DNA of 32,000 nt. Origin: Bellilinea caldifistulae. GTDB taxonomy: Bacteria; Chloroflexota; Anaerolineae; Anaerolineales; Anaerolineaceae. A program made the translations under genes and the position numbers. Every line of letters starts with the position of its first letter. Position 1 is the first letter of the stretch. The stretch covers positions 18,577 through 50,576 of the forward strand of contig NZ_LGHJ01000028.1 in NCBI RefSeq assembly GCF_001306055.1, given 5' to 3'. Below are positions 1 to 28,879 of the stretch, in pieces. The notes under the pieces are model-generated. The model was not told the DNA's origin, made no database searches, and was given only the letters and a program-made list of their open reading frames with translations.

Positions 1-2672
1 TTTTCCAGATGCAAGGCAAAGGATCGTTGAGGATGTATTTGCAGTTGTTCCTCAATTTCGTCTAACCTTTGAGGTGGAGAAACCATCTCTATAAGGATGG
101 AATTCTCCGGTGGTCTCGGAGGTGGATCTTGCAAATCATACCGTCCCATAGCCACAAATTGAAGGCGATATTGAGAAGGCGGCAAAGAATATTCTTTCGG
201 AATATCCATTTGCCACCAACCCGGCTCGTTATGTCGCGTGCTGGGAGAAAGATCGTCAGGAACAGGAATCTGAATTGGATCTGACCAGGGTTGCCACAGA
301 CCCCAAATACGCACATATCGTTGACGCAACGGCTCAGGCTCAAACCAGTGCAACCGCCTGCCTCTGTTCTGGAGAATCTCGATTTCACATTTTTGAATAT
401 TAAGATCGCGATGGGCTTGCAAAACCGGTAACTCAATGCTTTGCTCATTGAATTGCATTTTCAGGATGAAATATAAGATAGACGCCCTGGAATGGCTTCG
501 TAAAGTATCATGAAATGCATTGAGTTGAAAAACCAATTCCCGTTGATATGTTTGTTGGGGAGGTTGTACTTGTAGGGTTTCATTCTCGTTGTCATCCGTT
601 AAATGGAGCTCCACAATATCCAATTCCATCGCAGAAGGAATTTTCAGGAATAACCGGGGATTGTCGCTTTGGAGTATTTTGGCGAGGGATAAGGATAAAG
701 GCTTATCTTGCCATTCACGGGGTTTACCGGATATCAATTCTAATGACCACTTCAAGTGTGGAATTTCAATCTTGAAAGGTACCCGAATGATCTCTTTCTC
801 GGTGGGCTTTTCAATTTGCAGAGCAACCTGTTCGTCTTCCGCAGGTACGTTGATTTGCCACCTGTCGCCTATGTTTTGTATTTCCGCCTCGCTATCTTCC
901 AACAGGGAAAGAGAGAAACCCTCTGGAAGCCGAATCGAAAACTGCACATCCTTTGCCCCTTGCCAATCAGGAAGATAATAAGGGTGAAGATCTTCCACCT
1001 GAATAGAAGAGGGCAAAACACGGAAGGGGAGTTCTGCTTGAAAACTATTGCCCCGCTGGATTGTAAGATGAAAAGTACCGCAGGGGGCTTCTCCCAGCAC
1101 CTTATGGAGAGATAATCGAACCACATTGTTTTCCGGAACGTTCTCGCCCGGAAAATCGCCGGCAGAATACTCCCACTTCCCTTGCGGGTTTGCAGCGAAA
1201 CGAGACTGCAGGTGAATTTTCCAGCGGCTCAGTTCACTTTCCAAATGCTCAAAATCATGAACAGGGAGTTCCAAACCGGGACTTCCCAGATAGACGGGTT
1301 TCTCTTCTATCGGCAGGCTTTGGGGTAAAAGTATGCCAACAATTTTTGGCTCTTGTGTCCACCGGACAGGCAAAGGGGGGCAAACATCCTGCCCCTGGCG
1401 CTGTAAACGAATGAGGCTGGCATTCCTGAGATCCCACGCTTGGGATTGCCAATTGTCCAAAGGTGGTGGGAAAGGATGTAAATGTTCAACTTCATGAACA
1501 GACCCTGAAAACAACAATTCAGCATCCGCCGGATAGAAAAGCCACAACGTCTCTGCAGGGATTACCGGGTTGAGAGAACACGCGCTATTATCCCTGTAAC
1601 GGAAGGCAAAAACAGGCACTTCGGAAGAGGGCAAAAGACGCAGAGAACGCTTAAAAAGCGTTGTTTCGTTTCCTTCTTCACTTTGCCCTACAAAGGAAAT
1701 TTCGGCATATGGAGCAAGCGTCTCCGGCTGGTAGGAAACTTCATCCGTATGTACTTCTGAACCACTGCGTCGAACACGCAGACGAAGGGTTCCTTCTTCC
1801 CCAACAGGCTGGGTGCTATCAACAAGGCGTATCCTCCAGAAAAAACAGACATAACGCGATTGCTCTTCAGAAGAGATAGGTTGGGCAGGCAATTGAATGT
1901 TTAAGCCGGGAGCGTAGGGATCAAAATACAAACGCGGCAAACGCCGGCGAATGGATAATTCAGCCCGGTTTTGCCAGAAATGCTCAAAGGCTTGTACCAC
2001 ATACGGGCGGATACCTAAAGTTGCTGCATCGGGAATGGGGTTCCCTTGCACGGCTTCACGCGCCATCTGGCGGCATTTGCTGAAAAAGCGTTGGGCCGGT
2101 TCCCCCCCATATTGGAAAAAGTGACGCACAACGTCATCCACAAACAATTCAGCCGTATAATGGTTGAGCAATTCTTCCAGTGCTCGACCGTCTTCCAGAT
2201 CTTTGTAAGGGGGTTTTTGCACCGAAGGAAGCAAAATGTGCTGAAAGAAATCCGCTAGAGAGTAAGCCGGAATGCCCCCATGAAGACGGATGGGATTTAT
2301 ATATCCTTCTTCGAACTCATTTCGAAAGTCCCGGAGATTGGGGTACTGCTGAATAATTTCGCGGAACAATCTTCCCCAGTGATGGTTTGGGTGAAATATT
2401 GCGACGTGATCTATTTCAAACGCTTCGGCTACCTTATCCCAAAAACTGCGTTCGTCGTTGAATGCTGCCTTAAATGACAGATAGGTCACAAAAACGGCGG
2501 GAAAATGTGTCCCGAAGTTTCGAGTGGCTTGGGTTAATCCGTACCGACGTATCCATTTTTCCAGCTCTATTTCCAATTCCGCATGCTGTTCCCGAGAAAG
2601 CGGAATTTCTCCCAGCAACTGAATTTGGCTGAGATAAGGTTCTAAGTAAGTTTCCCATTCGTGAAGGTGCAT
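1..2672 (-). CDS. Large uncharacterised protein, N-terminal >=890 aa. The 3' end runs off the window. Last visible gene of the methyltransferase operon.
   Basis: Absent from the supplied ORF track because no stop codon lies inside the window. Manual minus-strand translation from the ATG at 2672-2670 (MHLHEWETYLEPYLSQIQLLGEIPLSREQHAELEIELEKWIRRYGLTQ...) stays open for 890 codons down to position 3. A GGGGGAG Shine-Dalgarno lies about 9 nt upstream, and the start is 27 nt downstream of the MTase stop. I see no Walker, nuclease or PglZ-like motif. Confidence 0.75.
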   Translation of the reverse strand, partial: MHLHEWETYLEPYLSQIQLLGEIPLSREQHAELEIELEKWIRRYGLTQATRNFGTHFPAVFVTYLSFKAAFNDERSFWDKVAEAFEIDHVAIFHPNHHWGRLFREIIQQYPNLRDFRNEFEEGYINPIRLHGGIPAYSLADFFQHILLPSVQKPPYKDLEDGRALEELLNHYTAELFVDDVVRHFFQYGGEPAQRFFSKCRQMAREAVQGNPIPDAATLGIRPYVVQAFEHFWQNRAELSIRRRLPRLYFDPYAPGLNIQLPAQPISSEEQSRYVCFFWRIRLVDSTQPVGEEGTLRLRVRRSGSEVHTDEVSYQPETLAPYAEISFVGQSEEGNETTLFKRSLRLLPSSEVPVFAFRYRDNSACSLNPVIPAETLWLFYPADAELLFSGSVHEVEHLHPFPPPLDNWQSQAWDLRNASLIRLQRQGQDVCPPLPVRWTQEPKIVGILLPQSLPIEEKPVYLGSPGLELPVHDFEHLESELSRWKIHLQSRFAANPQGKWEYSAGDFPGENVPENNVVRLSLHKVLGEAPCGTFHLTIQRGNSFQAELPFRVLPSSIQVEDLHPYYLPDWQGAKDVQFSIRLPEGFSLSLLEDSEAEIQNIGDRWQINVPAEDEQVALQIEKPTEKEIIRVPFKIEIPHLKWSLELISGKPREWQDKPLSLSLAKILQSDNPRLFLKIPSAMELDIVELHLTDDNENETLQVQPPQQTYQRELVFQLNAFHDTLRSHSRASILYFILKMQFNEQSIELPVLQAHRDLNIQKCEIEILQNRGRRLHWFEPEPLRQRYVRIWGLWQPWSDPIQIPVPDDLSPSTRHNEPGWWQMDIPKEYSLPPSQYRLQFVAMGRYDLQDPPPRPPENSILIEMVSPPQRLDEIEEQLQIHPQRSFALHLE

Positions 2673-2699
2673 ACGCCTATTCTCCCCCTTTCCAATTTT

Positions 2700-5423
2700 T
2701 TATAAAAGGCTCTGCTGTCTTGGCTGATCCTCCCAACGCAGGCGCGCGTTGTCGGCATACATTAACAACTGAGAATCATCCTCAAATACCCGTTCCGGAA
2801 GGCGATTGGCAACCTGGACAATGGCAGCGTAATTGCGTTCCTTCCACGCCCGGCTGAAGCCCGCTCGGATGGCTTCCAATCGAAAGGCTTTCAACTTCCC
2901 CTTACTCTGCAGATAGGCGGCAAACTCGCGCAGTAAACTCTTCTCCCGCAGGGCTTGCAAGTCGCTTTCTTTGGAGGGATCCGGTAACCGCCAGAGCCCC
3001 TCTGCATCCTCCAGAAAGTTTTCCTCCAGCATTGTTTTCAACTCGGGCATGGCTTCGTAGGGCAATTTGCGGCTTTCCTGGTTGAAGCGGATGAGCAAAT
3101 CCGAGTACGTTTTGGGACCTTCTGCCAGTTGAACCCTCAACCACTGGATGGCGCTCTTCTCATCCGTGATCAACAGCGGCATTTGCTCTACCCGCTCGGC
3201 TTGCAGGCGCAATCGGTCAAACTGGCTGGCTTGGGGATAGGTGAAAATCATCCCTTCGCGTTCGGCAAAGCGCTCTTTTAAGCCAGCGTAAAATTGCGGC
3301 GCAGAGAGGGGCACGGCAAACCCATGCTGAATGTGATAGGCAACCATGCGGTCGAACAGTACATAGGGGGCGCGCTCTTGGACGAACTCGAGCAGAACGT
3401 CGTTCTTCAGCATCGGCATGGGCAGGAACTCCAGATGCTGACGCACAAACTCCCAGGCCCCCTCCACCGTACCGGCTTCCAGCGCAAACTGCTGTTCAAA
3501 TATGGCGGTGGGCTTGTAAGCCGAGATGATCAGGTCCTGCTTGACGGCGCCAAAGGCGTTGACCTGATTGAATGTTCCTTGTATTTTGTCTATCGTACGT
3601 ACATCGGCGATCACAAAACCGGCGCGTAACAGGGCTTCTTGAATGGCGTTCCAGACGGCGTTTTGCGAGTTATGGAACTCTACCGTCATCCAGCGCCCGG
3701 GTTTGAGCACGCGGTAGAACTCGCGGAAGCAGGCTTCCATGAGGGCTTGATATTCGGGCAAGCCCTTGCGCTGGGTCTTGTTGACCACCGCCTCGGGCGC
3801 GTTGTTGGTGAAAACGCCCAGCCAGGCTTCCCAGAGGAAGTTGAGTTCGCTGTACATCAGGTTGGCGCCGAAGGGAGGGTCAATAAAAATGTAATCTAAT
3901 GAATTATTAGGCAAGTTTAATCTGTTGCTCGATTGGGTTGATAATAAACCAAAACTATTCTTCTTAGTTCTTATCAGTAGATTTAGAAGTTTATAGAATT
4001 TTCTTGAGATAAAAGGAATTGGATCTATCTCTCTAATTGTGGATGCAATATATAAAGTTCTAGATAATTTACTAGGTATACCACTTGTCCTTTCTCGGTT
4101 TAATTTTGAGGAGCCTTCAGTAATTCCTGTAAGTAGCCAAAGCAAATAATTTTTGTGTGGAGATTTTCCCATTTTTTTAAAAATTTCCGCCAGCGCCCAT
4201 AGATTGCGGCGGGTGTAGAAATGGTGCACGTGGGTAACTCCCACGTTAAACGGGTCGCTGGTTTTGTCACCCTTCGGCAAAGGATAGGTCGGGAACGGAT
4301 AAGGAATGTCGCTGTTTTCGATTTTCTCCAGCAGGGCAAGGTCTGCGGCATCCGGGCGTTTTTCGTAGCGCTTCTTGCCCACGCTGTAGTTGATCAGCAC
4401 CGGCACCTGCTTGGCTTGGCGCACGGTTTGCCCGATGGCGCGGTCGTACTTGGTTTCAAAGGCGCGCTCCACCCGCAGGGTGCGGCTTTCTTTGCGCGGG
4501 CTCTTGCTGAGCAGGGCGCCACATCCAGGACAGTGCCAATCGTCGCGAATCTGCCCGTTTTCATGATCCACCGCCACGTCCCAGAAGACCATCTCTGCCC
4601 CACACTGCGGGCAGAGAAAGACATCCGACCAGACGGTATAGTTGATTTTGCCTTTTACCCCCTCACCCCCAGCCCCTCTCCCAGCGGGAGAGGGGGGCGT
4701 GTGCCAGGTTTCGTACATCCAGTCGCATTCTTTTTCTACTTCCCGGAGAATGCGCTGGGCTTCACGCTCAAAGGCGCGCGCATCGGCCGGGGTGTTGTAG
4801 TTGTAAGCGATGAACGTGGCGGCGGGGGAGAGATCAATGAGCACGGCTTTACGCGTCCCCAGGCGGGAAATGGGCTTATCACCTTCCCAGATGATGTCCT
4901 GCTCATCCACGCGGTAGCCCAGGCTCTCCACAGTTCTTTGATCGCCACATAATTGCGCCGCCACGCCGGTCATGCCGGTGCCGCAGAATCCGTCCAGCAC
5001 AATATCGCCCGGTTCGGTGTAGTGCAGAATATAGCGCATGATGGCTTTGTGCGGCACTTTGGTGTGATACGAATGGGCATTGTAGATAGGATCGTTCTTA
5101 CCCTCCGAGACATCTGCGGCAAATGGCTCGCGATGGTAGTGGTTCTCGGCATCGTTGGGCAAGCCCATTTTCTCGCGGGTCTGGCGCCGTTCTTCCTGCC
5201 ATTGCGCCAAAATTTCCTCCATGAAGGGATTGGGACAAGCCGTGTAGTAGGGTGGATCGGAGAGGTTGAGGATGGCTTCGTCGCTGGCAATGGGAAAGCC
5301 GGGAATCTGGCGGAATTGCGCATCTTTTAGGTGCTGGCATAGTTTCTCCCGCCATTGCTGACGTTCTTCTTCGGAAACCATTGGGGTAGCATTGACTTGC
5401 TCAAACAGTTCGTCTTGATGCAT
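2700..5423 (-). CDS. DNA methyltransferase, N6-adenine/N4-cytosine type, 907 aa, with an internal zinc ribbon
   Basis: ORF 2700..5450. The preferred start is the ATG at 5423 (MHQDELFEQ), preceded by AAGGAAGAG. SAM-binding motif I is VLDGFCGTGMTG. Catalytic motif IV is IFIDPPFGANLMY. There is an N-terminal SDPPYYTACPNPF box and a CPQCG...CPGCG zinc ribbon between the motifs. Confidence 0.88.
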   Translation of the reverse strand: MHQDELFEQVNATPMVSEEERQQWREKLCQHLKDAQFRQIPGFPIASDEAILNLSDPPYYTACPNPFMEEILAQWQEERRQTREKMGLPNDAENHYHREPFAADVSEGKNDPIYNAHSYHTKVPHKAIMRYILHYTEPGDIVLDGFCGTGMTGVAAQLCGDQRTVESLGYRVDEQDIIWEGDKPISRLGTRKAVLIDLSPAATFIAYNYNTPADARAFEREAQRILREVEKECDWMYETWHTPPSPAGRGAGGEGVKGKINYTVWSDVFLCPQCGAEMVFWDVAVDHENGQIRDDWHCPGCGALLSKSPRKESRTLRVERAFETKYDRAIGQTVRQAKQVPVLINYSVGKKRYEKRPDAADLALLEKIENSDIPYPFPTYPLPKGDKTSDPFNVGVTHVHHFYTRRNLWALAEIFKKMGKSPHKNYLLWLLTGITEGSSKLNRERTSGIPSKLSRTLYIASTIREIDPIPFISRKFYKLLNLLIRTKKNSFGLLSTQSSNRLNLPNNSLDYIFIDPPFGANLMYSELNFLWEAWLGVFTNNAPEAVVNKTQRKGLPEYQALMEACFREFYRVLKPGRWMTVEFHNSQNAVWNAIQEALLRAGFVIADVRTIDKIQGTFNQVNAFGAVKQDLIISAYKPTAIFEQQFALEAGTVEGAWEFVRQHLEFLPMPMLKNDVLLEFVQERAPYVLFDRMVAYHIQHGFAVPLSAPQFYAGLKERFAEREGMIFTYPQASQFDRLRLQAERVEQMPLLITDEKSAIQWLRVQLAEGPKTYSDLLIRFNQESRKLPYEAMPELKTMLEENFLEDAEGLWRLPDPSKESDLQALREKSLLREFAAYLQSKGKLKAFRLEAIRAGFSRAWKERNYAAIVQVANRLPERVFEDDSQLLMYADNARLRWEDQPRQQSLL
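4658..4697. repeat. GC-rich palindromic repeat element, intragenic in-frame copy inside the MTase gene
   Basis: CCCCCTCACCCCCAGCCCCTCTCCCAGCGGGAGAGGGGGG. It contains a perfect 10-bp stem (4673-4682 pairs with 4686-4695) and a 3-nt loop. On the minus strand it is read as PPSPAGRGAGGEGV. Confidence 0.55.
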
Positions 5424-5433
5424 ATCTCTTCCT

Positions 5434-8400
5434 TTACCAGTCAATCTCAATGCGTACTTTGGTGAGATCCTTATCGCCGATTTTCTTATCCAACAAAGTT
5501 TTCAACCGTTGGTAGAGTTCTTCGATGGTGCAGGGCATTCCCGGCTGGGTAAGAGCAATCAAGAAGTCGCTGCCTTCCAGCACCACTTTATCCAAACCGC
5601 GTAGCGCGTCGTTGATAGCCTCAACGAGATTCCTGGATACCGGAGAAGTAAACTCGCCCTTTTCCACGAACTCCTTGATCTGCTCGCGGTAGGGCGATTT
5701 GAGCAAAGTGATATTTTCGGCAACTTCGGGTTTTTGTAATTCCTCACGCAGCCGGGCAATCCACTTGCTGTGCACCAGGTTCAGGTTTTCTTCTAATTTC
5801 TCCAGTCGCTCCACAGCAGAGAAGGAGAACATTTCACTGCGCGGGTCAAAGCCACAGTGAGGGCATTCGGTGTATTTGGATAAATCCTCAAGCGTAAGGT
5901 TCGGACAGGAACGCAATTCCGAAAATTCTTTTTGCAAGCGAGTCAGTTCACTGTTGGGCAGGATAATCACCTCTTGTAAGGTAAGCAAATGGCGCCAGTG
6001 CGGGTTTTGGGTCAACTTCTGCTTTCGCTCATCGCCCAAACGGTCGAGCCGCGCTCTGGCATGTAGATTAAGATATGCCTGCGCATAAGACGACCGCAGA
6101 TTGCTCAGTCCGCCATTCAGACGGGAATACAGCGAAGGGTCGGCGCGTTGTTGAGGATTTCTTAACCAGGTAAGATGCTCATTCCTCAAGCGCTGAGCCT
6201 CGAGATGCCATGGATGATGCTCAGGAAGATGCAAATCAGCCCGTGTTATGTACTGGAGATGAGATTGTACCGATTGAAGGACATCCCGGAGCATGATAAG
6301 AACTTTGAGAGTGTCTCGTCCCTTCAGTTGTGCTTGCACTTCCCCAACTTCGAGAGAAAACTGCTGCAAACGCCCGGGGGTATTCAAGCGTTGAATCATC
6401 TCCAGCAAATTTTTATAGTTATCCAACGACTTACGATAAGATTGAATTTCATCTGAAGATAGAACAGGCTCTCCCCAATACTGTAAGCCATCCCGCAGTC
6501 CATCCATCACCATCACTAGGCGTTGAAGTTCTTCATTAGCGAACTGATTCAGTTCTTGGACCATGCGTTCATGCTGTTCGGAGTAATCTACCCATTCTGG
6601 AGGGAACCCCAGTCCTTGCAAGAGCGCTTTCAGCGCTTTTTCGGGTATCGGCTTTGGCCGAGAAATAGCAGAAAACTGCATGAAATCTTCAATTTTCAGA
6701 CGCGCTACTTCATTAAGATCATCTGAAGTGAATGTTTTTCCCATCCAGTTAATAGTGATGGCGCCTTGACGGAGAAGCGCCGCTAGAACAACCATCAACA
6801 GTTCCGGCTCAAGGCCAAACTGAACTTCACGCTCTTCATGACGTGGGTCAGGCGGGGCTATTAAGTCCTTGCGGTTGAGTACCTGAGCGGGAGGAAGTGT
6901 ATCCAATTTATTGAGCACTGCCCGGGCGTAACGAGATTCCAGAACAGTGAAGACTGGTTTATTATTCTCTTTTCGAAGTAAATCAAGTCCTTCCAGAATA
7001 CTCTGGGCTTGGATATTCATCGAGCCACCTGTCATTGCGCGAATTGCCCATTCCGCGGCTTCCGGTAAGGACTTCAAGGTAAGTTGCATGCCGACAAAGG
7101 ATGGGTATTCGGGGTACTTTTGGTCAAAAACAGGCTGGAGGATGGCGGAAGCAAGTTGATAGATCTGATCGCGCAAATTGATTTCCTGGCGGAAAAGACG
7201 ATACTCGCCCTTGTAATCAGCCACCCGGCGAGAAACCGCCCCGTATCGAATGGAAAAAGCCTTGTCGAAGTATTCCCGAATCCAGCGGGAAAGGTCTCTC
7301 AGATGGTTTTCTGCTTTTTTTTCATACTGCATCTTATTACTTCCGGAAGAAATTGTCGACATTTCGCGTGCGCCAGCATATAACCTGAGCGAGCGCAGAA
7401 AATCTTCCTGAGGGGACTCAAGTACAAAGAAAATTTCATCCGAACGGGGCTGGTCATTTTTTCCGTTAGTTTTGAATAGGTGCAAGAAGTGAATATAAAA
7501 GTCGCGCTCCGGGTGGGTGGTGGAGAGTTCATCGCGCGTACCCAGGAAAATATAACCATCCCGGGTAATTCCATGACCTTGCCAAGGGATCTCAACCTGC
7601 CAGATGCGAAAACCGGTCCGGTAGGTGCTATCGCTTAATTCCAGAAGGCGCCTTAAGGCATCGAAGTAGTAGCGGTCAAGAGTATCCGGATCCAATACAG
7701 CGGCACGTTGCTCGATTTGAGCATCAAAATCAATGTCTTTATCTAAATCAAGATAATACTGATCGTTTTCCGGATTACGGGAGAGAAATTGCCCGCTAAC
7801 TGTTCGGGAAATTTCCTGCAGAACATTTTCCACACTGGTCAGTAGGAAAGTTGCATCGGTTTCAGGAATAGGCAGATACAGACACAGACGATCGCGCAGT
7901 TCTCTGGGGGTCAATCCAATCGGCACACGCAGGTCGCCGGTAGTGAGGCGATGAAGCGAAAGACTGTGGATGATCCGAATAGCGGCATCTCGGTAAATGG
8001 GAGAAAGGGCATTACGCACCCGCTCTTCCAGCACCTGGCTCTTGTCCATCACCTCCCGAATTTCTGGGATTGCTCTGTAAGAAGGGTCTTCGAGAATCAA
8101 ACGCCAGAATGCATCAAACGAAATCAGCCCAGGGCGGTCTTCTGGGACTTCCTGTTGAAGTATTTGACGTATTTCGTGACTGACTGCCTTGAGGGCTTGC
8201 CGTTTTTCAATAACTGTCACTCGCTCGAACATTTCCAAGTATGCCGGGTGAATGGGGAACAACGCAACAAAGTCTTCTAAACGCTCTGCCATTGAGTCGT
8301 ACAGGGGGGTGAACTTTTGTAAGTAAGTTCGAATCTGTTGGCGTTGTTTCTCATACTTCGCAAGTAAACGGCGAGAGACGACAAAAGCCACATCTTCGCG

Positions 8401-9141
8401 GACAATGCGGACTTGTTGATACCGATCACGCACCCGGCGGATTGAATCTGCGGCAAATTGGAAGCGTGGGCTGTCAAACAATGATTCCTGTAACCCGGCT
8501 ATGAAGCGCAAGTCGGTCGTAGAGCAAATCTCACCGATTTCTCGAAGAAACGAAAGATCATGGATCAACTCACGTTCATTTCGTCCTTGCAAGTAGTCCA
8601 GTAATTCATCAATAACAATCAATAGGCCCTGTCTGGGGTATTTTGCTTGAAAAGCGTGGATAGCGTTTTGGAGCAAATCTTTGGTGTTGGGAACCTGATT
8701 CATGGGCGGGAAATGCACTTCAACCCCCATTCGGGCTAGCCCTTCTTGCAAGTATTGGAGGACAATATCCCGCAAAGTCATCGCAGAATTGCCGATTTCC
8801 TGGCGGATCACACTGAAGCGACCTGCAATAGGCTGAAGGCCTTGCTGGACAGCAGGATGAGTGACCTCACTAAGTAATTCGGCATGTTCTGCAATAGCAG
8901 AAATAAGCGCCATTAAGTGCGATTTACCGGTGCCATAGTATCCCACAATGAATAAACCACCGTTATCTTCACTCCGTTCAAGGCTGATAGTAGGCAGGAT
9001 GCGGAGCAGGATGACATCCGCCATGCGGTCAGAAATGACATACGTGCGCACAAGTTTTTCGGCAATACGGTGGTCATCTGCCTCACGGACATGGACTACA
9101 TTTTCGACGGGTTCGAACTGAACTAGGTCAGAATACTTCAT
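5434..9141 (-). CDS. Giant P-loop ATPase (~1235 aa), BrxC/PglY-sized; family not assignable by eye
   Basis: ORF 5434..9153. The likely start is the ATG at 9141 (MKYSDLVQFEP), with GAGG 6 nt upstream. The alternative ATG at 9153 overlaps the helicase stop. Walker A is GYYGTGKSH and Walker B is LLIVIDELLDY. A long helical C-terminal region carries a C-x14-CPHCG zinc-ribbon-like motif. Confidence 0.85.
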   Translation of the reverse strand: MKYSDLVQFEPVENVVHVREADDHRIAEKLVRTYVISDRMADVILLRILPTISLERSEDNGGLFIVGYYGTGKSHLMALISAIAEHAELLSEVTHPAVQQGLQPIAGRFSVIRQEIGNSAMTLRDIVLQYLQEGLARMGVEVHFPPMNQVPNTKDLLQNAIHAFQAKYPRQGLLIVIDELLDYLQGRNERELIHDLSFLREIGEICSTTDLRFIAGLQESLFDSPRFQFAADSIRRVRDRYQQVRIVREDVAFVVSRRLLAKYEKQRQQIRTYLQKFTPLYDSMAERLEDFVALFPIHPAYLEMFERVTVIEKRQALKAVSHEIRQILQQEVPEDRPGLISFDAFWRLILEDPSYRAIPEIREVMDKSQVLEERVRNALSPIYRDAAIRIIHSLSLHRLTTGDLRVPIGLTPRELRDRLCLYLPIPETDATFLLTSVENVLQEISRTVSGQFLSRNPENDQYYLDLDKDIDFDAQIEQRAAVLDPDTLDRYYFDALRRLLELSDSTYRTGFRIWQVEIPWQGHGITRDGYIFLGTRDELSTTHPERDFYIHFLHLFKTNGKNDQPRSDEIFFVLESPQEDFLRSLRLYAGAREMSTISSGSNKMQYEKKAENHLRDLSRWIREYFDKAFSIRYGAVSRRVADYKGEYRLFRQEINLRDQIYQLASAILQPVFDQKYPEYPSFVGMQLTLKSLPEAAEWAIRAMTGGSMNIQAQSILEGLDLLRKENNKPVFTVLESRYARAVLNKLDTLPPAQVLNRKDLIAPPDPRHEEREVQFGLEPELLMVVLAALLRQGAITINWMGKTFTSDDLNEVARLKIEDFMQFSAISRPKPIPEKALKALLQGLGFPPEWVDYSEQHERMVQELNQFANEELQRLVMVMDGLRDGLQYWGEPVLSSDEIQSYRKSLDNYKNLLEMIQRLNTPGRLQQFSLEVGEVQAQLKGRDTLKVLIMLRDVLQSVQSHLQYITRADLHLPEHHPWHLEAQRLRNEHLTWLRNPQQRADPSLYSRLNGGLSNLRSSYAQAYLNLHARARLDRLGDERKQKLTQNPHWRHLLTLQEVIILPNSELTRLQKEFSELRSCPNLTLEDLSKYTECPHCGFDPRSEMFSFSAVERLEKLEENLNLVHSKWIARLREELQKPEVAENITLLKSPYREQIKEFVEKGEFTSPVSRNLVEAINDALRGLDKVVLEGSDFLIALTQPGMPCTIEELYQRLKTLLDKKIGDKDLTKVRIEIDW

Positions 9142-9149
9142 GATAAACC

Positions 9150-10844
9150 TCATTTTGTAGATGGTAGTATTTTTTCAAGTAGGCTTTTTGAGCGTTCATG
9201 AGCAACAATAATCAGATAGGTTCGAGCGCGTGAACAGGCAACGTATAGAATCTCATTGATCCAATATGCATCACTGTCTTCAAGCCCGGTCAAAATAACG
9301 ACCCGATTTTCCAAACCCTTGAAACGCGAAGTACTGCTGACGCGAATATCAATGTGACGAGAGGTTTTATCACTCCACTCCCGAAGGATGAAATTTCCCA
9401 ACTTCCTCCCAGGATTGAATATGGTATGTTCTGGTGCCCGCGTGGTCAGCAATGTGATATGTCTTGGCTCTACCTTTTCGGTATTTACCAGACGATCTAA
9501 AGATTTTCTAACAATTTCTTCTTGTTGGGCCGAATTAGAGAAGAAATACACTTCGGGAGAGAGACCTACTGGACCATAACACACAAGTTCGTTTGAAGCA
9601 GTATGAAATTCTTTAACCACATTATGGATAGACTGGGTATTCCGGCAGTTCTCATTCAAAATAAACGGGGGGATCTTCAACCAATTATCCAGATCTTTGA
9701 GACGATGATAGATATTCTGATTATTATCATAGAAGACATAGAAGATACCCTTCTCACCGTCATGAAGAGCCATCATTAGAGTTTTAAGCCATTCTATATG
9801 AAAGTCTTGTCCTTCATCTACAATAATGGCATCATATTGAGTTCCTAAATTCTCTAAAGCCTCCAAAAGCATTTCGGGTAAGACATTATTATAGTAATCC
9901 TCATCATTTAGAAAAGAACGATAACCCAATCCAGCATCCTTCGCCAATTTTGTGCATAGTCCATGAAAATGAAATACATCAACTTCTTGTGGCGCAACTT
10001 CTCGTAAGTATTCAGCTAGAGGTACATTAAAACAGACCAGTAACGTTGCAAAGCCCTGTTCTGATAATTGGCGTGCTTTTTCCAAAGCCAGCATGGTTTT
10101 TCCAGAGCCTGCACATCCTTCGATGAGTGCACGTCGTTGCCGTTGGATGAATTGCAACAGAGCCATTTGTTGTTCGGTTAATTCAATAATTTTTTGCTCC
10201 TCATATTCAAGTTGTACGCCCATTGGGGTACTCAGCGTAATAGAATTTGCAAGAAAAGACTCAAGAATCTCAATCCCTTGTTTTCCCAACGCGCCGAATT
10301 TATTTCCATCTCTATGGAACCAGTCAAAAGTCTGTTCAATTTTATCTAACAGGTTTCTTAGATCCACCGCATCTATTATCAGTTCACGTGACAGGTCCGG
10401 ACGTATGAGAATTTTTTCGGCGATTACATCTGGAAATACAACCGAATAAGCAATATTGATATAACGATTTCCCCAAGAGGGTAATTCTCTTAACTTGGAA
10501 ATCATAGCCCCCTTGCTTCTTCGGAGTTGATTTACAGGGTCTTTGATAGGATGCTCTTGTCCATAACGATCTTTGCTATACCATTGCTGAAGATTGGCAT
10601 CATAATGGATCTGTCCCCCTTTTACTTCTAAAATCAAAATACCTTTATTGGGGTGGGCAATAATAAAATCTGCTTCTCCGTCTTCTACACCTTGTTGAAG
10701 ACTACGTATTTGCCAGGCCACGTGGTAGAACACGGTGTAATTATCGGGTAAGGTGGATAAGGCCGCGTAAACCTTCTTTTCTGCCGATAGCTTTTCATCT
10801 TTCAGTGCCCATTCAGGGAAGTGCTGAGGGTACATTCTTGCCAT
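9150..10844 (-). CDS. NERD-domain / SF1 (UvrD-RecD-like) helicase
   Basis: ORF 9150..10931, trimmed to MARMYPQHFPE at 10844. NERD-like signature: EADFIIAHPNKGILILEVKGG. Walker A: EGCAGSGKT. Walker B: AIIVDEGQDF. C-terminal SF1 motif: ILYVACSRARTYLIIV. About 35-38% GC on sampled lines, well below neighbouring genes. Confidence 0.85.
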   Translation of the reverse strand: MARMYPQHFPEWALKDEKLSAEKKVYAALSTLPDNYTVFYHVAWQIRSLQQGVEDGEADFIIAHPNKGILILEVKGGQIHYDANLQQWYSKDRYGQEHPIKDPVNQLRRSKGAMISKLRELPSWGNRYINIAYSVVFPDVIAEKILIRPDLSRELIIDAVDLRNLLDKIEQTFDWFHRDGNKFGALGKQGIEILESFLANSITLSTPMGVQLEYEEQKIIELTEQQMALLQFIQRQRRALIEGCAGSGKTMLALEKARQLSEQGFATLLVCFNVPLAEYLREVAPQEVDVFHFHGLCTKLAKDAGLGYRSFLNDEDYYNNVLPEMLLEALENLGTQYDAIIVDEGQDFHIEWLKTLMMALHDGEKGIFYVFYDNNQNIYHRLKDLDNWLKIPPFILNENCRNTQSIHNVVKEFHTASNELVCYGPVGLSPEVYFFSNSAQQEEIVRKSLDRLVNTEKVEPRHITLLTTRAPEHTIFNPGRKLGNFILREWSDKTSRHIDIRVSSTSRFKGLENRVVILTGLEDSDAYWINEILYVACSRARTYLIIVAHERSKSLLEKILPSTK

Positions 10845-10911
10845 AAATAACCTGCGAGTCAAGGAATAGATTTTTGGAATAAGAATTTCGCTCAGGAAAG
10901 ACTGTATAGGC

Positions 10912-11047
10912 CAAAAACTCAGCCCGCGCATTTCGGTTCGCTTGCGCGGGCGGCAAAAGTTTGCTATGCTTGTTTTTGCCGCAACGCGCCTTCACCGCGT
11001 TGCCGTCTCAGCCTCGCCGATACCAGCGGTGGGGCTGAATTTGTCTT
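10912..11047 (-). ncRNA. Candidate structured 5' leader/attenuator or small RNA upstream of the helicase operon
   Basis: A GC-rich 115-nt island lies between two AT-rich genes and holds three perfect hairpins: 10981-11003 (8-bp stem GCAACGCG/CGCGTTGC), 10952-10980 (7-bp GGCAAAA/TTTTGCC) and 10922-10951 (9-bp GCCCGCGCA/TGCGCGGGC). On the minus strand the last hairpin is followed by TGAGTTTTTGG, which resembles an intrinsic terminator. Confidence 0.35.
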
Positions 11048-11054
11048 TCTAGAT

Positions 11055-11082
11055 AGTATATAGCAAAAGTTTATGCTTTCAA
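11055..11082 (-). promoter_or_regulatory. Putative sigma70-type promoter reading leftward toward the helicase operon
   Basis: On the minus strand this reads TTGAAA (11082-11077), a 16-nt spacer, then TATACT (11060-11055). It sits in the divergent intergenic region between the helicase operon and the integrase. Confidence 0.4.
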
Positions 11083-11144: not shown

Positions 11145-12017
11145 ATGTTGTTTAGCACTGCAGTCAAACAATTTATCGAAGAACGGATTGCGATGCGATA
11201 TTCACCGCATACCATCCGGGATTATGGGGTCATCTATAAAAAATTTCTTGCTTGTGTGGGAGATGTGGATATTCGTACAATCAACAAACAAAACATCGTC
11301 CAGTTCATGGCTTCTCAATCGAAAATATCGGCAAAAACCCTGCGCAACTATCATGCCGACCTGTCAGCGTTATGGCAATGGGCTATCCAGCAAGGTATTT
11401 GTGATGAGAACCCGGTTCGCCAGATCAAAGCGCCAGTAGCGGAAAAGAAAACAATCTTACCTTTTTCCAAAATTGAGATATTTACAATTTTAGAGGCAGC
11501 AAACCACTCTTCCAATCCCTTCCAAAATCGAGCCATAATATTGCTGTTACTGGATACCGGAATACGGGCATCTGAATTATGCAACTTGACAATAAATGAC
11601 CTAAACAAAGCGACAAATCATATTTTGGTCTTTGGAAAGGGAAAGAAAGAGAGAAACATTCCGATCTCAAAAAATACTTCCAACGCGATTGAGGAATGCC
11701 TCTGGTACAGAAAATATACAACCGCTAATTCGCCACTATTCGCTAAAACCAATGGCAAACCTCTCGACCGAGTTTTACTAGGACGAATTCTAACAAGATT
11801 AGGAATGGACGCGGGGGTAAGTCATGTTTTTCCACATCGGTTCAGACACACATTTGCGATTCAATTTCTGAGAAACGGGGGAAATATATATTCACTTCAA
11901 AAGATTTTGGGACATTCAACTCTGGATATGGTGAAGAGATATTTGGCAATTGCCCAACACGATCTTGATCGTGACCATGAGATCGCCTCACCGGTAAATC
12001 ATTGGGGCTTAAGATAA
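11145..12017 (+). CDS. Tyrosine recombinase / phage-type integrase (XerC/D-like), 290 aa
   Basis: An N-terminal SAM-like core-binding domain, then the catalytic set: TGIRASEL (Arg), HRFRHTFA (H-x-x-R) and LGHSTLDMVKRYL (His...Tyr). GGAGGA RBS lies upstream. About 40% GC. Confidence 0.9.
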   Translation: MLFSTAVKQFIEERIAMRYSPHTIRDYGVIYKKFLACVGDVDIRTINKQNIVQFMASQSKISAKTLRNYHADLSALWQWAIQQGICDENPVRQIKAPVAEKKTILPFSKIEIFTILEAANHSSNPFQNRAIILLLLDTGIRASELCNLTINDLNKATNHILVFGKGKKERNIPISKNTSNAIEECLWYRKYTTANSPLFAKTNGKPLDRVLLGRILTRLGMDAGVSHVFPHRFRHTFAIQFLRNGGNIYSLQKILGHSTLDMVKRYLAIAQHDLDRDHEIASPVNHWGLR

Positions 12018-19093: not shown

Positions 19094-19843
19094 ATGAATC
19101 ACCCAATTGTTCGTACCGAAGACCTGACCAAAATTTACGGGCAGGGTTCAACCGCCATCCGCGCGCTGGACGGCGTCAATCTTGCCATTCAGCCGGGCGA
19201 GTTTGTCGCCGTGATGGGCCCCAGCGGCTGCGGGAAATCCACCCTGCTGCATCTGATCGGCGGGCTGGACCGCCCCACCAGCGGAAAAGTCTTTCTGGAT
19301 GGTCAGGATTTGACCACCCTCAATGATGACGCGGTGACCGCCATCCGCCGGCGTAAAATGGGCTTTGTTTTTCAGTTCTTCAACCTCATTCCGGTGCTGA
19401 ACGCCCTGGAAAACACTGCCCTGCCGATGATTCTGGACGGCATCCGCCCGGCTGAAGCACGTCAGCGGGCGCAGGAATGGCTCGAACGAGTCGGCATGGG
19501 ACACCGCCTGACGCATCACCCCTCGCAACTTTCCGGCGGGGAGCAGCAGCGGGTGGCGATTGCCCGCGCGCTGGCAGCCGACCCGGCCCTGATTCTGGCG
19601 GATGAGCCGACCGGCAATCTCGATTCGCGTTCTTCTGAGGAAATTGCCACCCTCCTGCGCCAGATTTCCTCCACCTGGGAACGCACCATCCTGATGGTGA
19701 CCCATGACGCCCGGATTGCCGCCTACGCCGACCGGATTGTCTTTCTAAAAGACGGCAAAATTGTGGATGAAACTATTCTGGAACATCGCAACGGCGAACA
19801 GACCGAAGCCGTGCTGGATAAAATGCGCGAAATTGGTGACTGA
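19094..19843 (+). CDS. ABC transporter ATP-binding protein (MacB/LolD/FtsE-like)
   Basis: Walker [10 protein letters not shown], signature [15 protein letters not shown], Walker [13 protein letters not shown], and H-loop VTHD. The ATG at 19094 has GGAGG 5 nt upstream. The track start at 19076 is less likely. Confidence 0.92.
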
Positions 19844-19865
19844 GCAGCCGTAAAAGGAGTATGAG

Positions 19866-22421
19866 ATGAACCTCTACTGGACTCTGGCATGGAGATACCT
19901 GAGCGGACGCAAATTGCGCACCGCCCTGACCACGCTGGCGATTACCTTTGGTGTGCTGGTCATTTTTGGCATGAACACCTTTTTGCCCACCTTCGTCAAA
20001 GCCTACCAGACGCAGGTGATGGCGGTTGCCGGTCAGGTGGATGTCACCATCACCCATAAAACCGGCGAGGCGTTCGATCCTTCGGTTCTCGAAAAGGTGC
20101 GCGCCGTGGAAGGGGTTGAAGTTGCCAGTGGTTCGCTGGAACGCATCGTCAACCTGCCGGCCGATTACTTTGATCACGATCCGCAAGCCTTTGACCGAAT
20201 CACCGCCCTGCTGCTGAAAGGCATTGACCCGACGACCGCACGCCAGATGATCGCCTACAACATCATCGAAGGGCGTTTCCTTGAACCTGAGGATCAGGGG
20301 GCGGCGGTGATCACCCGCTCGCTGGCGCGCGAAATCGGCCTCAAATTGGGCGATACCCTCGCGCTGCCCACCGCTACCGGCATTGCCGAACTGAAGATTG
20401 TCGGCATCCTGCCGGAGCGGATGATGCCCGGTAACGAAGAAGTGCTGGTGACCCTCAGCGATGCTCAACGGTTGATGAACATGCCGGATAAGATTAACAT
20501 CCTGGATGCCAATTTTGGGACACTGGATGAAGCCCGCCGCGCCGAGATTCAAAAACGAATCACCGAAACCCTTGGCGATTCCTTCAAAATCGGCGCGCTG
20601 GAAACCGGCTCGGAAATCTACACCAACCTGAAAAACGCCCAGTTGATTTTTGTGCTGATGGGCTTTCTGGCGCTGTTGATGGGCGGCTTCATCATCTTTA
20701 ACACCTTCCGCACCATCATCGCCGAGCGCCGCCGCGATATTGGCATGCTCCGCGCCCTCGGCGCAAACCGCCGCACCATCCGCTGGCTGATCATCACCGA
20801 GGGGCTGCTGCAGGGGGTGATCGGCACGGCGGCCGGCCTGGTGCTGGGCTACCTGTTCGGGCTGCTGGTGTTGCAGTTGATTGTGCCGGTCGCCAAGCAA
20901 TTTCTCAATATTACCGTCGGCGCGCCGGAGGTTTCACCGCTTTTGCTGATCAGCTCCATTGTGCTGGGAGTGGGCATCACGGTCGTTGCCGGTCTGATCC
21001 CGGCTTACTCGGCTTCGCGAATCACCCCGCTGGAAGCCCTGCGCCCCTCGTTGGGCAAGGTCAATTTCAAGCGGGTTGCCAGCCTGTCCTTTTGGGCCGG
21101 GGTTGTGCTGATGGCGCTGGCCGCCGGGATTTTGTTCAGCCGGCAGGCCGCCCTGATCGGGCTGGGAGCGGTGCTCTTCACCGTCTCGCTGATCCTGATG
21201 GCGCCCGCCTTGATTAACCCGATTGCGGTGATGTTCGGCAGCCTGCTGGCGTTGATCTACGCCCGCAACGGCACAGCCCAGTTAGCCGAGGGCAACCTCA
21301 GCCGACAGCCGGGCCGCGCAACCGTGACTGCCTCCACCACGATGATTGCCCTTGCCGTGGTGGTGATGATGGCTTCCATCCTCTCATCGGTGGCGCTGAC
21401 CTTTACGCGGATCATGGAAAAAAGCCTGGGCAGCGACTACCTGCTGGTGCCGCCAACGCTGGCGGTGTGGGGCTCGAACACGGGCGCTTCCCCACAGCTG
21501 GCCGAGAACCTGCGCCAGATTGAGGGTGTGGAACTGGTCAGCACGCTGCGCTTTGCCGCCGCCCAGATTGGCGATATTGCCGTGGGCGTGCTGGGAATTG
21601 ACCCGGACGCCTACCTTCAGATGGAATCGCTGACCTTCACGACCGGCGACCCGCTCAGCGCGTTTCAGGCGCTCAAAACCGAACGGGCGATGATCATCAA
21701 CGGCGTGCTGGCAACCGCCTCCGGCATTCAGGTGGGCGACGAGGTTGAACTGGTGACCCCCGGCGGCAAACAGACCTACCGCGTGGTGGGGCTGGCAACC
21801 GACTACCTCAACGCCAAGACGACCACCGCCTACATCTCCCAGTCGAACATCGCCCTCGACTTTGGACGGCAGGAAGATGTCTTCTTCCAGATCAACCTCA
21901 AACCGGGCGCCGACCGGCAGAAGGTGGAAAGCGCACTGATGACCCTGCTGAAGGACTACCCGCAGTTCAAACTGCTCAACGGCAAAGCGTACGTGGAAGA
22001 AAACGCCCGCATGTTCGACGCCATCTTCATCGCCATGTACGCCATGGCCGCCTTTCTCGCCATTCCTTCGCTGATTGCCATGGTCAACACGCTGGCTATT
22101 GGGGTGCTGGAACGCACCCGCGAAATCGGCATGTTGCGGGCGGTGGGCGCCAACCGCCGTCAGGTGCGGGCGATCATCCTCTCGGAGGCCCTGATTCTGG
22201 CGGCAATTGGGACGGCGTTTGGTATTCTCGCCGGGCTGTACATGGGCATCATGGCGGTCAAAGCCTTTGAGGCGATGGGCTTCCCCATGGAGTACATCTT
22301 CCCGGCTTCCGGCATTCTGGCGGCGGCAGCAGTTGGCTTGCTGTTTGGGGCGCTGTCGGCGGTTGTGCCGGCCCGTCAGGCAACCCGGCTGGATGTGGTT
22401 GAGGCTCTGCGCTACGAGTAA
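19866..22421 (+). CDS. ABC transporter permease with two FtsX/MacB-type domains (851 aa)
   Basis: AAGGAG RBS. Two repeats of the FtsX 4-TM module (ERRRDIGMLRALGANRR and ERTREIGMLRAVGANRR) are each preceded by a large extracytoplasmic domain. Confidence 0.9.
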   Translation: MNLYWTLAWRYLSGRKLRTALTTLAITFGVLVIFGMNTFLPTFVKAYQTQVMAVAGQVDVTITHKTGEAFDPSVLEKVRAVEGVEVASGSLERIVNLPADYFDHDPQAFDRITALLLKGIDPTTARQMIAYNIIEGRFLEPEDQGAAVITRSLAREIGLKLGDTLALPTATGIAELKIVGILPERMMPGNEEVLVTLSDAQRLMNMPDKINILDANFGTLDEARRAEIQKRITETLGDSFKIGALETGSEIYTNLKNAQLIFVLMGFLALLMGGFIIFNTFRTIIAERRRDIGMLRALGANRRTIRWLIITEGLLQGVIGTAAGLVLGYLFGLLVLQLIVPVAKQFLNITVGAPEVSPLLLISSIVLGVGITVVAGLIPAYSASRITPLEALRPSLGKVNFKRVASLSFWAGVVLMALAAGILFSRQAALIGLGAVLFTVSLILMAPALINPIAVMFGSLLALIYARNGTAQLAEGNLSRQPGRATVTASTTMIALAVVVMMASILSSVALTFTRIMEKSLGSDYLLVPPTLAVWGSNTGASPQLAENLRQIEGVELVSTLRFAAAQIGDIAVGVLGIDPDAYLQMESLTFTTGDPLSAFQALKTERAMIINGVLATASGIQVGDEVELVTPGGKQTYRVVGLATDYLNAKTTTAYISQSNIALDFGRQEDVFFQINLKPGADRQKVESALMTLLKDYPQFKLLNGKAYVEENARMFDAIFIAMYAMAAFLAIPSLIAMVNTLAIGVLERTREIGMLRAVGANRRQVRAIILSEALILAAIGTAFGILAGLYMGIMAVKAFEAMGFPMEYIFPASGILAAAAVGLLFGALSAVVPARQATRLDVVEALRYE

Positions 22422-22448
22422 AACCGGAAGCCGGGGTCATACACCCCA

Positions 22449-22480
22449 CCGCGAGCCGCCTGACGGCGGCTCGCGGTTTC
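22449..22480 (+). terminator. Hairpin terminator after the permease gene
   Basis: A perfect 12-bp stem, CCGCGAGCCGCC-TGAC-GGCGGCTCGCGG, followed by a short TTT(C) tract. Confidence 0.55.
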
Positions 22481-22521
22481 CCGCAAAGGTCAGCGAGCAG
22501 GTTGGGCTGGCCTCTTTGGGG

Positions 22522-22698
22522 CTATCTGGCCGCACCAAAAACGCTGATGGAAATCAGATGACAAACGGCAACCGCTCTTTTCAGCCAGAGTTGCAGTTCT
22601 TGACTTTCGACATACAGACCGTAGAGAATCGCTCCCCCGTAACCCAAAGAAACAAAAAAGAAAATGTCGTAGAACAAAAGCCTTAATTTGCGCATCAT
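22522..22698 (-). CDS. Possible small membrane protein (58 aa), below the ORF-track cutoff
   Basis: Manual translation gives MMRKLRLLFYDIFFFVSLGYGGAILYGLYVESQELQLWLKRAVAVCHLISISVFGAAR. It has two hydrophobic stretches, a weak RBS, and converges on the 22449-22480 hairpin. Confidence 0.3.
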   Translation of the reverse strand: MMRKLRLLFYDIFFFVSLGYGGAILYGLYVESQELQLWLKRAVAVCHLISISVFGAAR

Positions 22699-22803
22699 AT
22701 CCCGGTCAGCCTATCCAATTTTGAGGGGTCTTGATGATATTTCCCCGCTTTTGCCTATTGCAGAGCAGAAATCAAACCTTCTTTGCGAATTTCCGCAGGC
22801 GGG

Positions 22804-25344: not shown

Positions 25345-25354
25345 GGGGTTACCT

Positions 25355-27759: not shown

Positions 27760-27760
27760 G

Positions 27761-28870: not shown

Positions 28871-28879
28871 ATCGCCCTC

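Follow-up and report, generated by a model that had tools for sequence, protein, structure and literature searches.

A six-gene Bellilinea caldifistulae operon with type 3 BREX components, a DruE-like helicase and a NERD helicase

Closest described systems and layout of the operon

Type 3 BREX is organized as brxF-brxC-pglXI-brxHII-pglZ-brxA (Goldfarb 2015; Rakesh & Krishnan 2026, PMC12839542), and its methyltransferase BrxXI has as hallmark an insert with a four-cysteine zinc finger (PMC12839542). Druantia III-B consists of DruH and a compact DruE without PLDs (10.64898/2026.05.13.724758), DruH being described as a globular N-terminal domain followed by six Ig-like ones and a C-terminal domain (10.64898/2026.05.12.722862). 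Druantia II (DruM-DruF-DruG-DruE) includes a DNA methyltransferase, DruM, which is a cytosine-5 enzyme. Two other classes with YprA helicases have been reported: ARMADA II, composed of the BrxHII-like ArmA, the PglX-like methyltransferase ArmB, the YprA helicase ArmC and the GajB-like UvrD helicase ArmD (Bell 2025), and TALON, which is rare, largely confined to Chloroflexota and combines NERD with a YprA helicase (Bell et al. 2025).

We analysed a 32,000-nucleotide stretch of Bellilinea caldifistulae DNA (the window). An earlier note on this DNA had reported four co-directional genes; these minus-strand ORFs were confirmed within the window at the sizes given, and independent gene calls agreed. 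The operon itself does not have four genes but six, its position-1 end being cut short by the window edge, so that the window holds its 5′ two-thirds. Gene 1, a NERD and SF1/UvrD-like helicase (9150..10844, minus strand; 564 aa from the ATG at 10844, in an ORF that opens at 10931), is followed by a BrxC/PglY-type AAA+ ATPase with DUF6079 (gene 2; 5434..9141, minus strand; 1235 aa), the type 3 BREX adenine methyltransferase PglXI/BrxXI (gene 3; 2700..5423, minus strand; 907 aa) and protein X (gene 4; 1..2672, minus strand), of whose 1200 codons the first 890 lie in the window. A PglZ just beyond position 1 had been considered in the earlier note; what we found there was the rest of X, a 1674-aa DruE-like YprA/MrfA helicase (gene 5) and, last in the operon, a 235-aa BrxA (gene 6), past which the coding strand flips. 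The first three gaps are of 8, 10 and 27 nt, as previously noted, with predicted RBSs (GAGG, AGGAAGAG and GGGGGAG) 5′ of the starts; X and the helicase are separated by 2 nt, and the helicase end and BrxA overlap by 4 nt.

Upstream of gene 1, a putative promoter and leader span 10845..11082 (minus strand). The promoter, TTGAAA-16-TATACT at 11082-11055, is a pattern match only (10/12 in a consensus scan); the 211-nt leader has a predicted fold of -70.3 kcal/mol (z = -2.6) and matched no Rfam family. The neighbouring integrase mentioned in the earlier note was found: a tyrosine recombinase gene (11145..12017, plus strand; Pfam Phage_integrase, 1e-36) lies 300 nt from the operon and is divergent from it. 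A second integrase, not included in the window, is located past the other end of the operon (L003, from 23579). The type III CRISPR locus is equally real (array at 23343-23678, cas genes at 24083-29692), but it does not adjoin the operon, from which it is ∼12.5 kb distant with two-component and ABC-transporter genes between.

BREX-3 components and the NERD helicase

Comparison of gene 2 with BrxC/PglY and DUF6079 profiles, as the earlier note had proposed, identified it as BrxC. It matched PADLOC model PDLC02482 over residues 1-1233 of 1235 (E=0, 1401 bits) and Pfam DUF6079 (E=0), and shared 38% identity over its full length with BrxC of the canonical BREX-3 comparator, a Leisingera plasmid operon (brxF-brxC-MTase-brxHII-pglZ). 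Its Walker A motif G..GxGKSH (71-79) and DE182-183 are conserved. Gene 3 matched PADLOC PglXI (E=0, 1220 bits) and Pfam N6_N4_Mtase (7e-19), and is 42% identical to the Leisingera methyltransferase over 97%. It carries an internal four-Cys zinc ribbon (CxxC...CxxC) inside an inserted target-recognition domain, and the motifs DGFCGTGMTG, DPPF and both CxxC are conserved. Gene 6 matched PADLOC BrxA at 1e-39. By these matches, BrxC, the PglXI methyltransferase and BrxA are genuine components of type 3 BREX.

The operon therefore resembles type 3 BREX in its full-length BrxC, in the BrxC-methyltransferase gene order, in the nested target-recognition insert and zinc finger of PglXI, and in the terminal position of BrxA. 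It differs in having no PglZ, the defining BREX gene, no RapA-like BrxHII and no BrxF, and in possessing X, a YprA/DruE-type helicase and the NERD-SF1 helicase as its first gene. Neither PglZ, BrxHII nor BrxF was found in the operon or within ±10 kb of ∼17 related loci. PglZ, BrxHII and DruH models each found their canonical targets in a positive control (1e-220 for PglZ models on canonical BREX-3 PglZ). Since PglZ is missing, the view that this methyltransferase-centred defence operon fails to fit BREX was upheld, as was the absence of a Lon-like gene. The operon is likewise neither DISARM nor a classical R-M system. It recalls DISARM in placing a helicase and a DUF1998/MZB domain, fused here (compare DrmA and DrmB), next to an adenine methyltransferase, but DrmC (PLD), DrmD and DrmE are absent and the methyltransferase is of another family.

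Gene 1 matched Pfam NERD (2e-12), AAA_19 and UvrD_C_2. In PADLOC it matched 'RT-associated NERD-Hel' (2e-97, full length) and also Nhi, AbiO and, weakly, GajB models. It is the first gene in every six-gene locus complete upstream. The previous domain calls (NERD plus SF1/UvrD-like helicase, P-loop ATPase, N6_N4 methyltransferase with CxxC...CxxC) were borne out, but not the statement that no PD-(D/E)xK motif is present: the NERD domain has D88...E102-x-K104 (593-aa numbering), conserved at 95% or more among 16 orthologues. In the same orthologues, Walker A (GCAGSGKT) and DE372-373 are also at least 95% conserved. The NERD helicase is likely to be the operon's nuclease. All four enzymes of the operon keep their catalytic motifs.

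The DruE-like helicase and protein X

The 1674-aa helicase, which belongs to the YprA/MrfA family, matched PADLOC DruE models at 1e-216, compared with 1e-27 for BrxHII. It contains DEAD, Helicase_C and MZB domains and no C-terminal nuclease. BLASTP against E. coli DruE gave 1e-45 in two blocks, and the protein ends where the PLD region of E. coli DruE starts. DrmA models matched its C-terminal core only (1e-20).

Protein X had been described as free of recognisable motifs, and indeed it matched nothing in Pfam, PADLOC or NCBIfam; an X profile found no match among PDB sequences. In its AF2 model (pLDDT 88), an N-terminal domain made entirely of helices is followed by roughly six beta-sandwich domains of Ig-like fold and by a helical C-terminal domain that bears a small Cys/His zinc module. 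This predicted architecture agrees with the published description of DruH (10.64898/2026.05.12.722862). Foldseek with this model returned tandem-Ig proteins only, and the N-terminal domain (pLDDT 93) matched no PDB structure (best E=0.5). Sequence comparison with DruH was negative: none of PADLOC's 11 DruH models matched X, although they do find canonical targets, HMMER scores in both directions were no better than those of shuffled sequences, and hhalign gave E=0.015-0.066 with <3% probability, a domain-only run aligning a different short segment than the whole-protein run. Because Ig-like chains are common, a shared architecture says little about homology. In every locus long enough to show it, X lay directly 5′ of the DruE-like helicase. 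The pair occurs without BREX genes in at least 10 loci, either alone or with just the NERD helicase; one X homologue is paired with a 2007-aa DruE bearing a PLD-like MIT_C domain. X, suggested earlier as a possible effector, is thus not a free-standing one but an obligate partner, encoded directly ahead of a Druantia-type helicase, and it is best read as DruH-like, although sequence homology to DruH is undetectable.

The likeness to Druantia III/III-B (Bell 2025; Himpich 2026) comprises a large YprA/MrfA helicase with MZB, DruE as best match and no C-terminal nuclease, a tightly coupled upstream protein of ∼1200 aa with no annotated domain, the modelled globular head, Ig-like domains and C-terminal domain of X, and the occurrence of X and helicase as a two-gene unit. 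No sequence similarity between X and DruH could be detected, however, and Druantia III has no modification enzyme, whereas here the pair lies within a BREX-3 module and behind the NERD helicase, which brings the operon to six genes, a methyltransferase among them. Druantia II is similar in uniting a Druantia-type helicase and a DNA methyltransferase in one operon, but its DruM is replaced here by a modification module of BrxC, PglXI and BrxA; DruM, DruF and DruG models matched none of the operon genes.

Competing explanations and a possible mechanism

We consider it probable that the six genes form one anti-phage operon, a chimera of a BREX-3 module (BrxC, PglXI, BrxA) and a Druantia III-B-like restriction module. 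Since the X-helicase pair is free-standing elsewhere, the genes could instead be two or three adjacent, independent systems of a defence island: a NERD helicase acting as a single-gene defence (of Nhi/AbiO type, or as a DRT accessory), a BREX-3 remnant confined to methylation and a stand-alone Druantia III-B-like pair. The loci in which the pair occurs without BREX genes favour this, as do the Nhi, AbiO and GajB matches of gene 1; its PADLOC family name, that of a reverse-transcriptase accessory, counts against the hybrid reading, and a reverse transcriptase adjoins it in L005 and L006. No reverse transcriptase was found in the other six-gene loci, however. BrxA sits 3′ of the DruE-like gene, which it overlaps, and BREX and Druantia parts are therefore interleaved. 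All six genes were found, in this order, in ∼17 distinct loci of Chloroflexota and one Thermotogaceae MAG, at 23-60% protein identity (down to 23-25% for X). One metagenomic contig, L044, holds the same parts permuted, with BrxF present (BrxF-BrxC-X-DruE-like-NERD helicase-PglXI), and in the set of loci retrieved through X, neither BrxC nor PglXI nor BrxA ever occurred without X and the helicase. Independent systems consequently appear rather unlikely. Complete carrier genomes include CP129482.1.

Membership of another YprA-helicase class is distinctly less plausible. ARMADA II also has a YprA helicase together with a methyltransferase related to BREX and a helicase of the UvrD family that bears an N-terminal effector domain, gene 1 weakly matches GajB models, and TALON is largely restricted to Chloroflexota and carries a NERD nuclease. 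By description, however, both are set apart: the operon has no BrxHII-like ArmA, its methyltransferase is PglXI rather than PglX/YeeA type, its UvrD-like helicase carries NERD and not RelE, its YprA helicase has no Vsr tail, and BrxC, BrxA and X are extra; TALON's TPR-CSD and TBP genes and inactivated RNase H helicase tail are absent. DruE models remain the helicase's best PADLOC matches, and an X homologue pairs with the long, PLD-like DruE. An ordinary type 3 BREX, with PglZ (and BrxHII) elsewhere in the genome or with X as a PglZ diverged beyond recognition, is very improbable. Clear BREX-3 orthologues are present and X fills the methyltransferase-BrxA interval, the canonical site of BrxHII and PglZ, but no PglZ lies within ∼10 kb of any related locus, no PglZ model matched X at E<=0.1, the helicase is not RapA-like, and the confident X model shows a helical head, Ig-like domains and helical tail only, with no alpha/beta alkaline-phosphatase-like domain.

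In the proposed chimeric operon, whose parts would act together, methylation may discriminate self from non-self: BrxC (AAA+ ATPase), PglXI (site-specific N6-adenine methyltransferase) and BrxA (DNA binder) would place the mark on host DNA and detect sites that lack it. The Druantia III-B-like pair would replace BrxHII, PglZ and BrxF, with X taking the place of DruH as a putative fast-evolving sensor or scaffold. The DruE-like helicase, which is compact, has an MZB zinc domain and lacks a nuclease domain, could load onto unmethylated invader DNA at single-stranded regions or 3′ overhangs, unwinding it 3′-to-5′, and the cleavage it lacks may be supplied by the NERD-SF1 helicase-nuclease.

We found no published description of a BREX-3 DNA-marking half joined, without PglZ, to a giant helicase of Druantia type plus its large partner protein. 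Given its BREX-3 components (BrxC E=0, PglXI E=0, BrxA 1e-39) and Druantia-type X and helicase, the operon would be a hybrid of two known types, not a wholly new one.

The operon and its BREX genes

The window is a reversed stretch of source contig DF967971.1 (GCA_001050215.2), and this contig was used to complete the operon. The four tightly coupled minus-strand genes described in the earlier note had the sizes reported there. They encode a NERD + SF1/UvrD-like helicase (9150-10844, 564 aa), BrxC (5434-9141, 1235 aa), PglXI/BrxXI (2700-5423, 907 aa) and protein X (1-2672, 890 codons ending at the window edge; 1200 aa in full), with gaps of 8, 10 and 27 nt and purine-rich ribosome-binding sites. 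The operon had been taken to comprise four genes; the source contig revealed six. The gene for a 1674-aa DruE-like helicase starts 2 nt after X, and the last gene, encoding BrxA (235 aa), overlaps that of the helicase by 4 nt. Past BrxA the strand switches, and a second integrase is found ~4 kb further. The first integrase does adjoin the operon as claimed, in divergent orientation (11145-12017), and the type III CRISPR-Cas locus noted with it is real but lies ~12.5 kb off and is not adjacent. Since the operon is bracketed by two integrases, it may ride on an integrative element.

Downstream of BrxA in the source locus (L003, 19462-23603), we observed a run of small genes on the minus strand, of which one gave a weak SWIM zinc-finger match, together with the second tyrosine recombinase. 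GC content of the operon is 41-54%, against 55-69% in several 1-kb windows nearby, and no tRNA gene was found within the window. Ahead of the NERD-helicase gene (10845-11082, minus strand) is a sigma-70-like promoter match, TTGAAA-16-TATACT, by pattern only. The 211-nt GC-rich leader of this gene is strongly structured (-70.3 kcal/mol, z -2.6); it belongs to no Rfam family and is little conserved, sharing just a 49-nt stretch with the equivalent leader at another locus (L019). The CRISPR array (23343-23678) has 5 repeats of ~36-38 nt at a spacing of 72-78 nt. Beside it are minus-strand type III cas genes (24083-29692) for Cas6, two RAMP proteins and Csm4_C, and a gene for a 566-aa NACHT/STAND NTPase (30156-31856).

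Three of the six proteins are those of type 3 BREX. BrxC, the large P-loop ATPase of BREX, was matched over its full length by both PADLOC (E=0) and Pfam DUF6079 (E=0). The third gene product is the type 3 methyltransferase PglXI/BrxXI (PADLOC E=0), with conserved CxxC pairs at 280/283 and 307/310 and a conserved DPPF motif. Its inserted target-recognition domain contains a 4-Cys zinc finger, a combination that is the hallmark of BrxXI (Rakesh & Krishnan 2026, PMC12839542). BrxA, encoded outside the window, matched the PADLOC BrxA model at 1e-39.

BREX of any type is defined by PglZ, an alkaline-phosphatase-superfamily protein. Its absence, already remarked upon in the earlier note, was confirmed: none of the six proteins matched PglZ in PADLOC or Pfam, the 10-kb flanks held no Pfam annotation of it, and none was present in the flanks of related six-gene loci. 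The same profile libraries recovered canonical PglZ (1e-220), BrxHII (E=0, BrxH model) and DruH (E=0). Lacking PglZ by this test, the operon falls outside the BREX definition. Nor did we find BrxHII, a RapA-like Swi2/Snf2 protein of ~940 aa, the sole SF2 helicase being 1674 aa long and matching BrxHI/II at 1e-27. BrxF was not found as first gene; the NERD-SF1 helicase takes that position, and no gene of BrxF size was called in the operon. Compared with the canonical BREX-3 operon of a Leisingera plasmid (WYL-brxF-DUF6079-MTase-BrxHII-PglZ-BrxA), the methyltransferase is 42% and BrxC 38% identical, whereas the NERD helicase stands for BrxF, and X and the DruE-like helicase stand for BrxHII and PglZ.

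The two helicases and protein X

The 1674-aa helicase comprises DEAD, YjiV_N, Helicase_C and MZB domains (Pfam). PADLOC assigned it to DruE1 (1e-216) and DruE3 (4e-189), with BrxHII far behind, and BLASTP matched it twice to E. coli DruE at 1e-45. By these matches it fits the DruE of Druantia type III, a large YprA/MrfA-family SF2 helicase with MZB/DUF1998. E. coli DruE runs ~380 aa further; since the present helicase stops right after MZB, it suits the description of Druantia III-B, which consists of DruH and a compact DruE without PLD domains (10.64898/2026.05.13.724758).

The first gene product was identified by Pfam NERD (2e-12) and by the PADLOC model 'RT-associated NERD-Hel' (2e-97). The operon had been thought to lack any restriction endonuclease motif; this proved incorrect, as the NERD domain keeps the PD-(D/E)xK-type D...ExK. 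Conservation of the catalytic motifs is at least 95% in all four enzymes. The UG/Abi-type reverse transcriptase that a DRT would have beside its NERD helicase is missing from the window, where the upstream neighbour is the integrase. A 592-aa reverse transcriptase (RVT_1) is encoded directly upstream of the NERD helicase at two loci of one Anaerolineales lineage (L005 1-1402 and L006 1-1402), matching the PADLOC name of the helicase family. It is missing from every other six-gene locus, and reverse transcriptase association was rejected as a general trait of the helicase, being limited to that single lineage.

Protein X had no match in Pfam, PADLOC or NCBIfam, and nothing useful came from searching PDB sequences with a profile or plasmids with tblastn. 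In an AlphaFold2 model built with 44 homologues (pLDDT 88), residues 1-235 are all-helical and residues 245-862 form about six beta-sandwich domains; a helical repeat (866-1061) and a small beta/zinc module complete the model. Foldseek with this model retrieved tandem-Ig proteins only, and the head domain modelled alone (pLDDT 93) had no PDB neighbour (best E=0.5). DruH is described as an ssDNA-binding protein with no catalytic fold, in which six Ig-like subdomains lie between a globular N-terminal domain and a C-terminal domain (10.64898/2026.05.12.722862; 10.64898/2026.05.13.724758). The predicted architecture of X fits that reported for DruH, and X lies directly upstream of the DruE-like helicase, as DruH does before druE.

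Sequence comparison gave a different picture of X versus DruH. None of 11 PADLOC DruH models matched X, and HMMER in both directions scored like shuffled sequences. With hhalign we obtained E=0.015-0.066 at <3% probability; the full-length alignment was collinear and paired the GG[IL]P motifs, again at <3% probability, and a domain-only test against 150 column shuffles (p ~0.02) picked out a different 22-column segment. PADLOC, HMMER and hhalign therefore do not support homology of X to E. coli-type DruH at the sequence level; we refer to X as DruH-like by position and modelled architecture and leave its membership undecided. X as a cryptic PglZ was rejected, there being no profile match despite the positive controls and no phosphatase fold in the model.

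For X, BrxA, the methyltransferase and the helicase, identities to the related locus L008 were 25%, 22%, 59% and 47%, respectively. X and BrxA are the fastest-evolving components, which would fit a role as sensor or in phage contact. Some X-family proteins (P0091, P0106, P0104) are 1700-2000 aa long and have N-terminal fusions, either to the RNA polymerase alpha C-terminal domain with sigma-70 region 4 or to CoA-binding/DNA-binding domains that are Rex-like. Such fusions hint that X may contact DNA or the transcription machinery.

Related loci in other genomes

A scan with one X-specific peptide motif located X homologues in 31 of 185,579 species-representative genomes, all Chloroflexota. An X HMM scan of 1.84 billion representatives extended the family to 1920 public-data clusters (50% identity), making X a large, unannotated and fast-evolving family whose head domain is a structural orphan. 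The DruE-like helicase directly follows X in every locus with enough sequence, and one X homologue has as its partner a DruE of 2007 aa that includes a PLD-like MIT_C domain. The six-gene operon was present in ~17 distinct loci, including a Thermotogaceae MAG with an X only 25% identical, and the pair also occurs alone or with just the NERD helicase (e.g., L007, L011, L023, L034). One metagenomic contig (L044) carries a permuted order, BrxF-BrxC-X-DruE-like-NERD helicase-PglXI, its BrxF matching PADLOC at 5e-41. We argue that interleaving, translational coupling, deep conservation and the permuted variant together indicate one functional system of exchangeable modules.

Neighbouring genes at these loci were also recorded. 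Ahead of the permuted locus (L044 140-3259) are the genes for a SNF2 helicase and for another protein, 1039 aa long, that PADLOC TmtA models match at 4e-60 and whose C-terminus resembles type IV methyl-directed restriction proteins. At L007, a NERD helicase-X-DruE-like trio has as its neighbours (19196-23555) a DUF499 ATPase, an ASCH/DUF7680 protein and a GmrSD_N protein; these three share its island and make up a BREX-related system centred on DUF499.

On Clostridium butyricum plasmid pNPD4_2 (L046 5783-13668), the gene for a 1069-aa hypothetical protein overlaps that of a compact 1559-aa DruE-like helicase. This partner was rejected as a sequence bridge between X and DruH, since it matches neither. 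Its unlikeness to both indicates that different lineages fill the 'DruH slot' with proteins that cannot be recognised as related to one another.

Known systems, proposed mechanism and meaning

Druantia type III consists of two genes without a modification enzyme, which places the present operon, with six genes including BrxC, PglXI and BrxA, outside its definition. Other genomes do have the X-helicase pair as a unit of just two genes. The earlier view that the operon fits neither DISARM nor classical R-M was upheld on gene content. Of the DISARM components (DrmA, DrmB, the PLD protein DrmC, DrmMI/MII, DrmD/DrmE), we obtained just a weak DrmA match to the helicase core (1e-20), and none of the six proteins matched DrmB, DrmC, DrmD or DrmE. 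Type III R-M pairs a Res helicase-nuclease with a Mod methyltransferase; here the methyltransferase is best matched by PglXI, the type III MTase model reaching 2e-5, and no Res subunit was found among the operon's proteins. ARMADA combines BrxHII-like ArmA, PglX-like ArmB and a Vsr-tailed YprA helicase, and TALON combines TPR-CSD, TBP, NERD and an RNase H-tailed YprA helicase (Bell 2025). The gene and domain inventory of the operon contained neither the ARMADA accessory genes, nor the TPR-CSD and TBP of TALON, nor the helicase tails of either; E. coli loci retrieved for ArmC comparison carried no ARMADA genes. Judged on gene content, the operon is not DISARM, type III R-M, ARMADA, TALON or DRT.

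Full-text literature searches returned no description of BrxC and DruE in one system. DruE and DUF1998 go unmentioned in the 2026 BREX survey, which discarded unassigned hits (Rakesh & Krishnan). The combination is likewise absent from the main text of the YprA survey, whose supplementary tables are partly readable (Bell 2025), and Bellilinea does not figure in the readable supplements of the two.

By analogy with BREX, BrxC, PglXI and BrxA would place site-specific m6A marks on host DNA and recognise sites that lack them. The DruE-like helicase and X, as sensor or scaffold, could then engage unmodified invader DNA at ssDNA or 3' overhangs, and the helicase would unwind it 3'-to-5', as shown for E. 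coli DruE. The NERD-SF1 helicase-nuclease might supply the cleavage absent from compact DruE.

We tentatively propose, as a reading with slightly less than an even chance of being right, that the operon represents a distinct, unnamed defence type in which the PglZ, BrxHII and BrxF of a type 3 BREX scaffold have given way to a DruH-like/DruE-like pair and a NERD helicase-nuclease. Such a chimera would explain why automated tools are likely to report these loci only as incomplete BREX plus an orphan DruE. As it keeps the BREX-3 genes for marking and recognition and swaps PglZ and BrxHII for the DruH-like/DruE-like pair, it suggests that, once unmodified DNA has been recognised, the two restriction modules serve equivalent functions. 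With its clear two-gene and permuted relatives, the operon offers a compact six-gene genetic system for testing this equivalence. Both BREX and Druantia are widespread, and the way in which each stops phage is debated, as are the role of PglZ and the need of Druantia for a nuclease or a self-mark. If the proposal is true, the restriction halves of BREX and Druantia would be naturally interchangeable, and a Druantia-type helicase could be steered by a BREX methylation mark.
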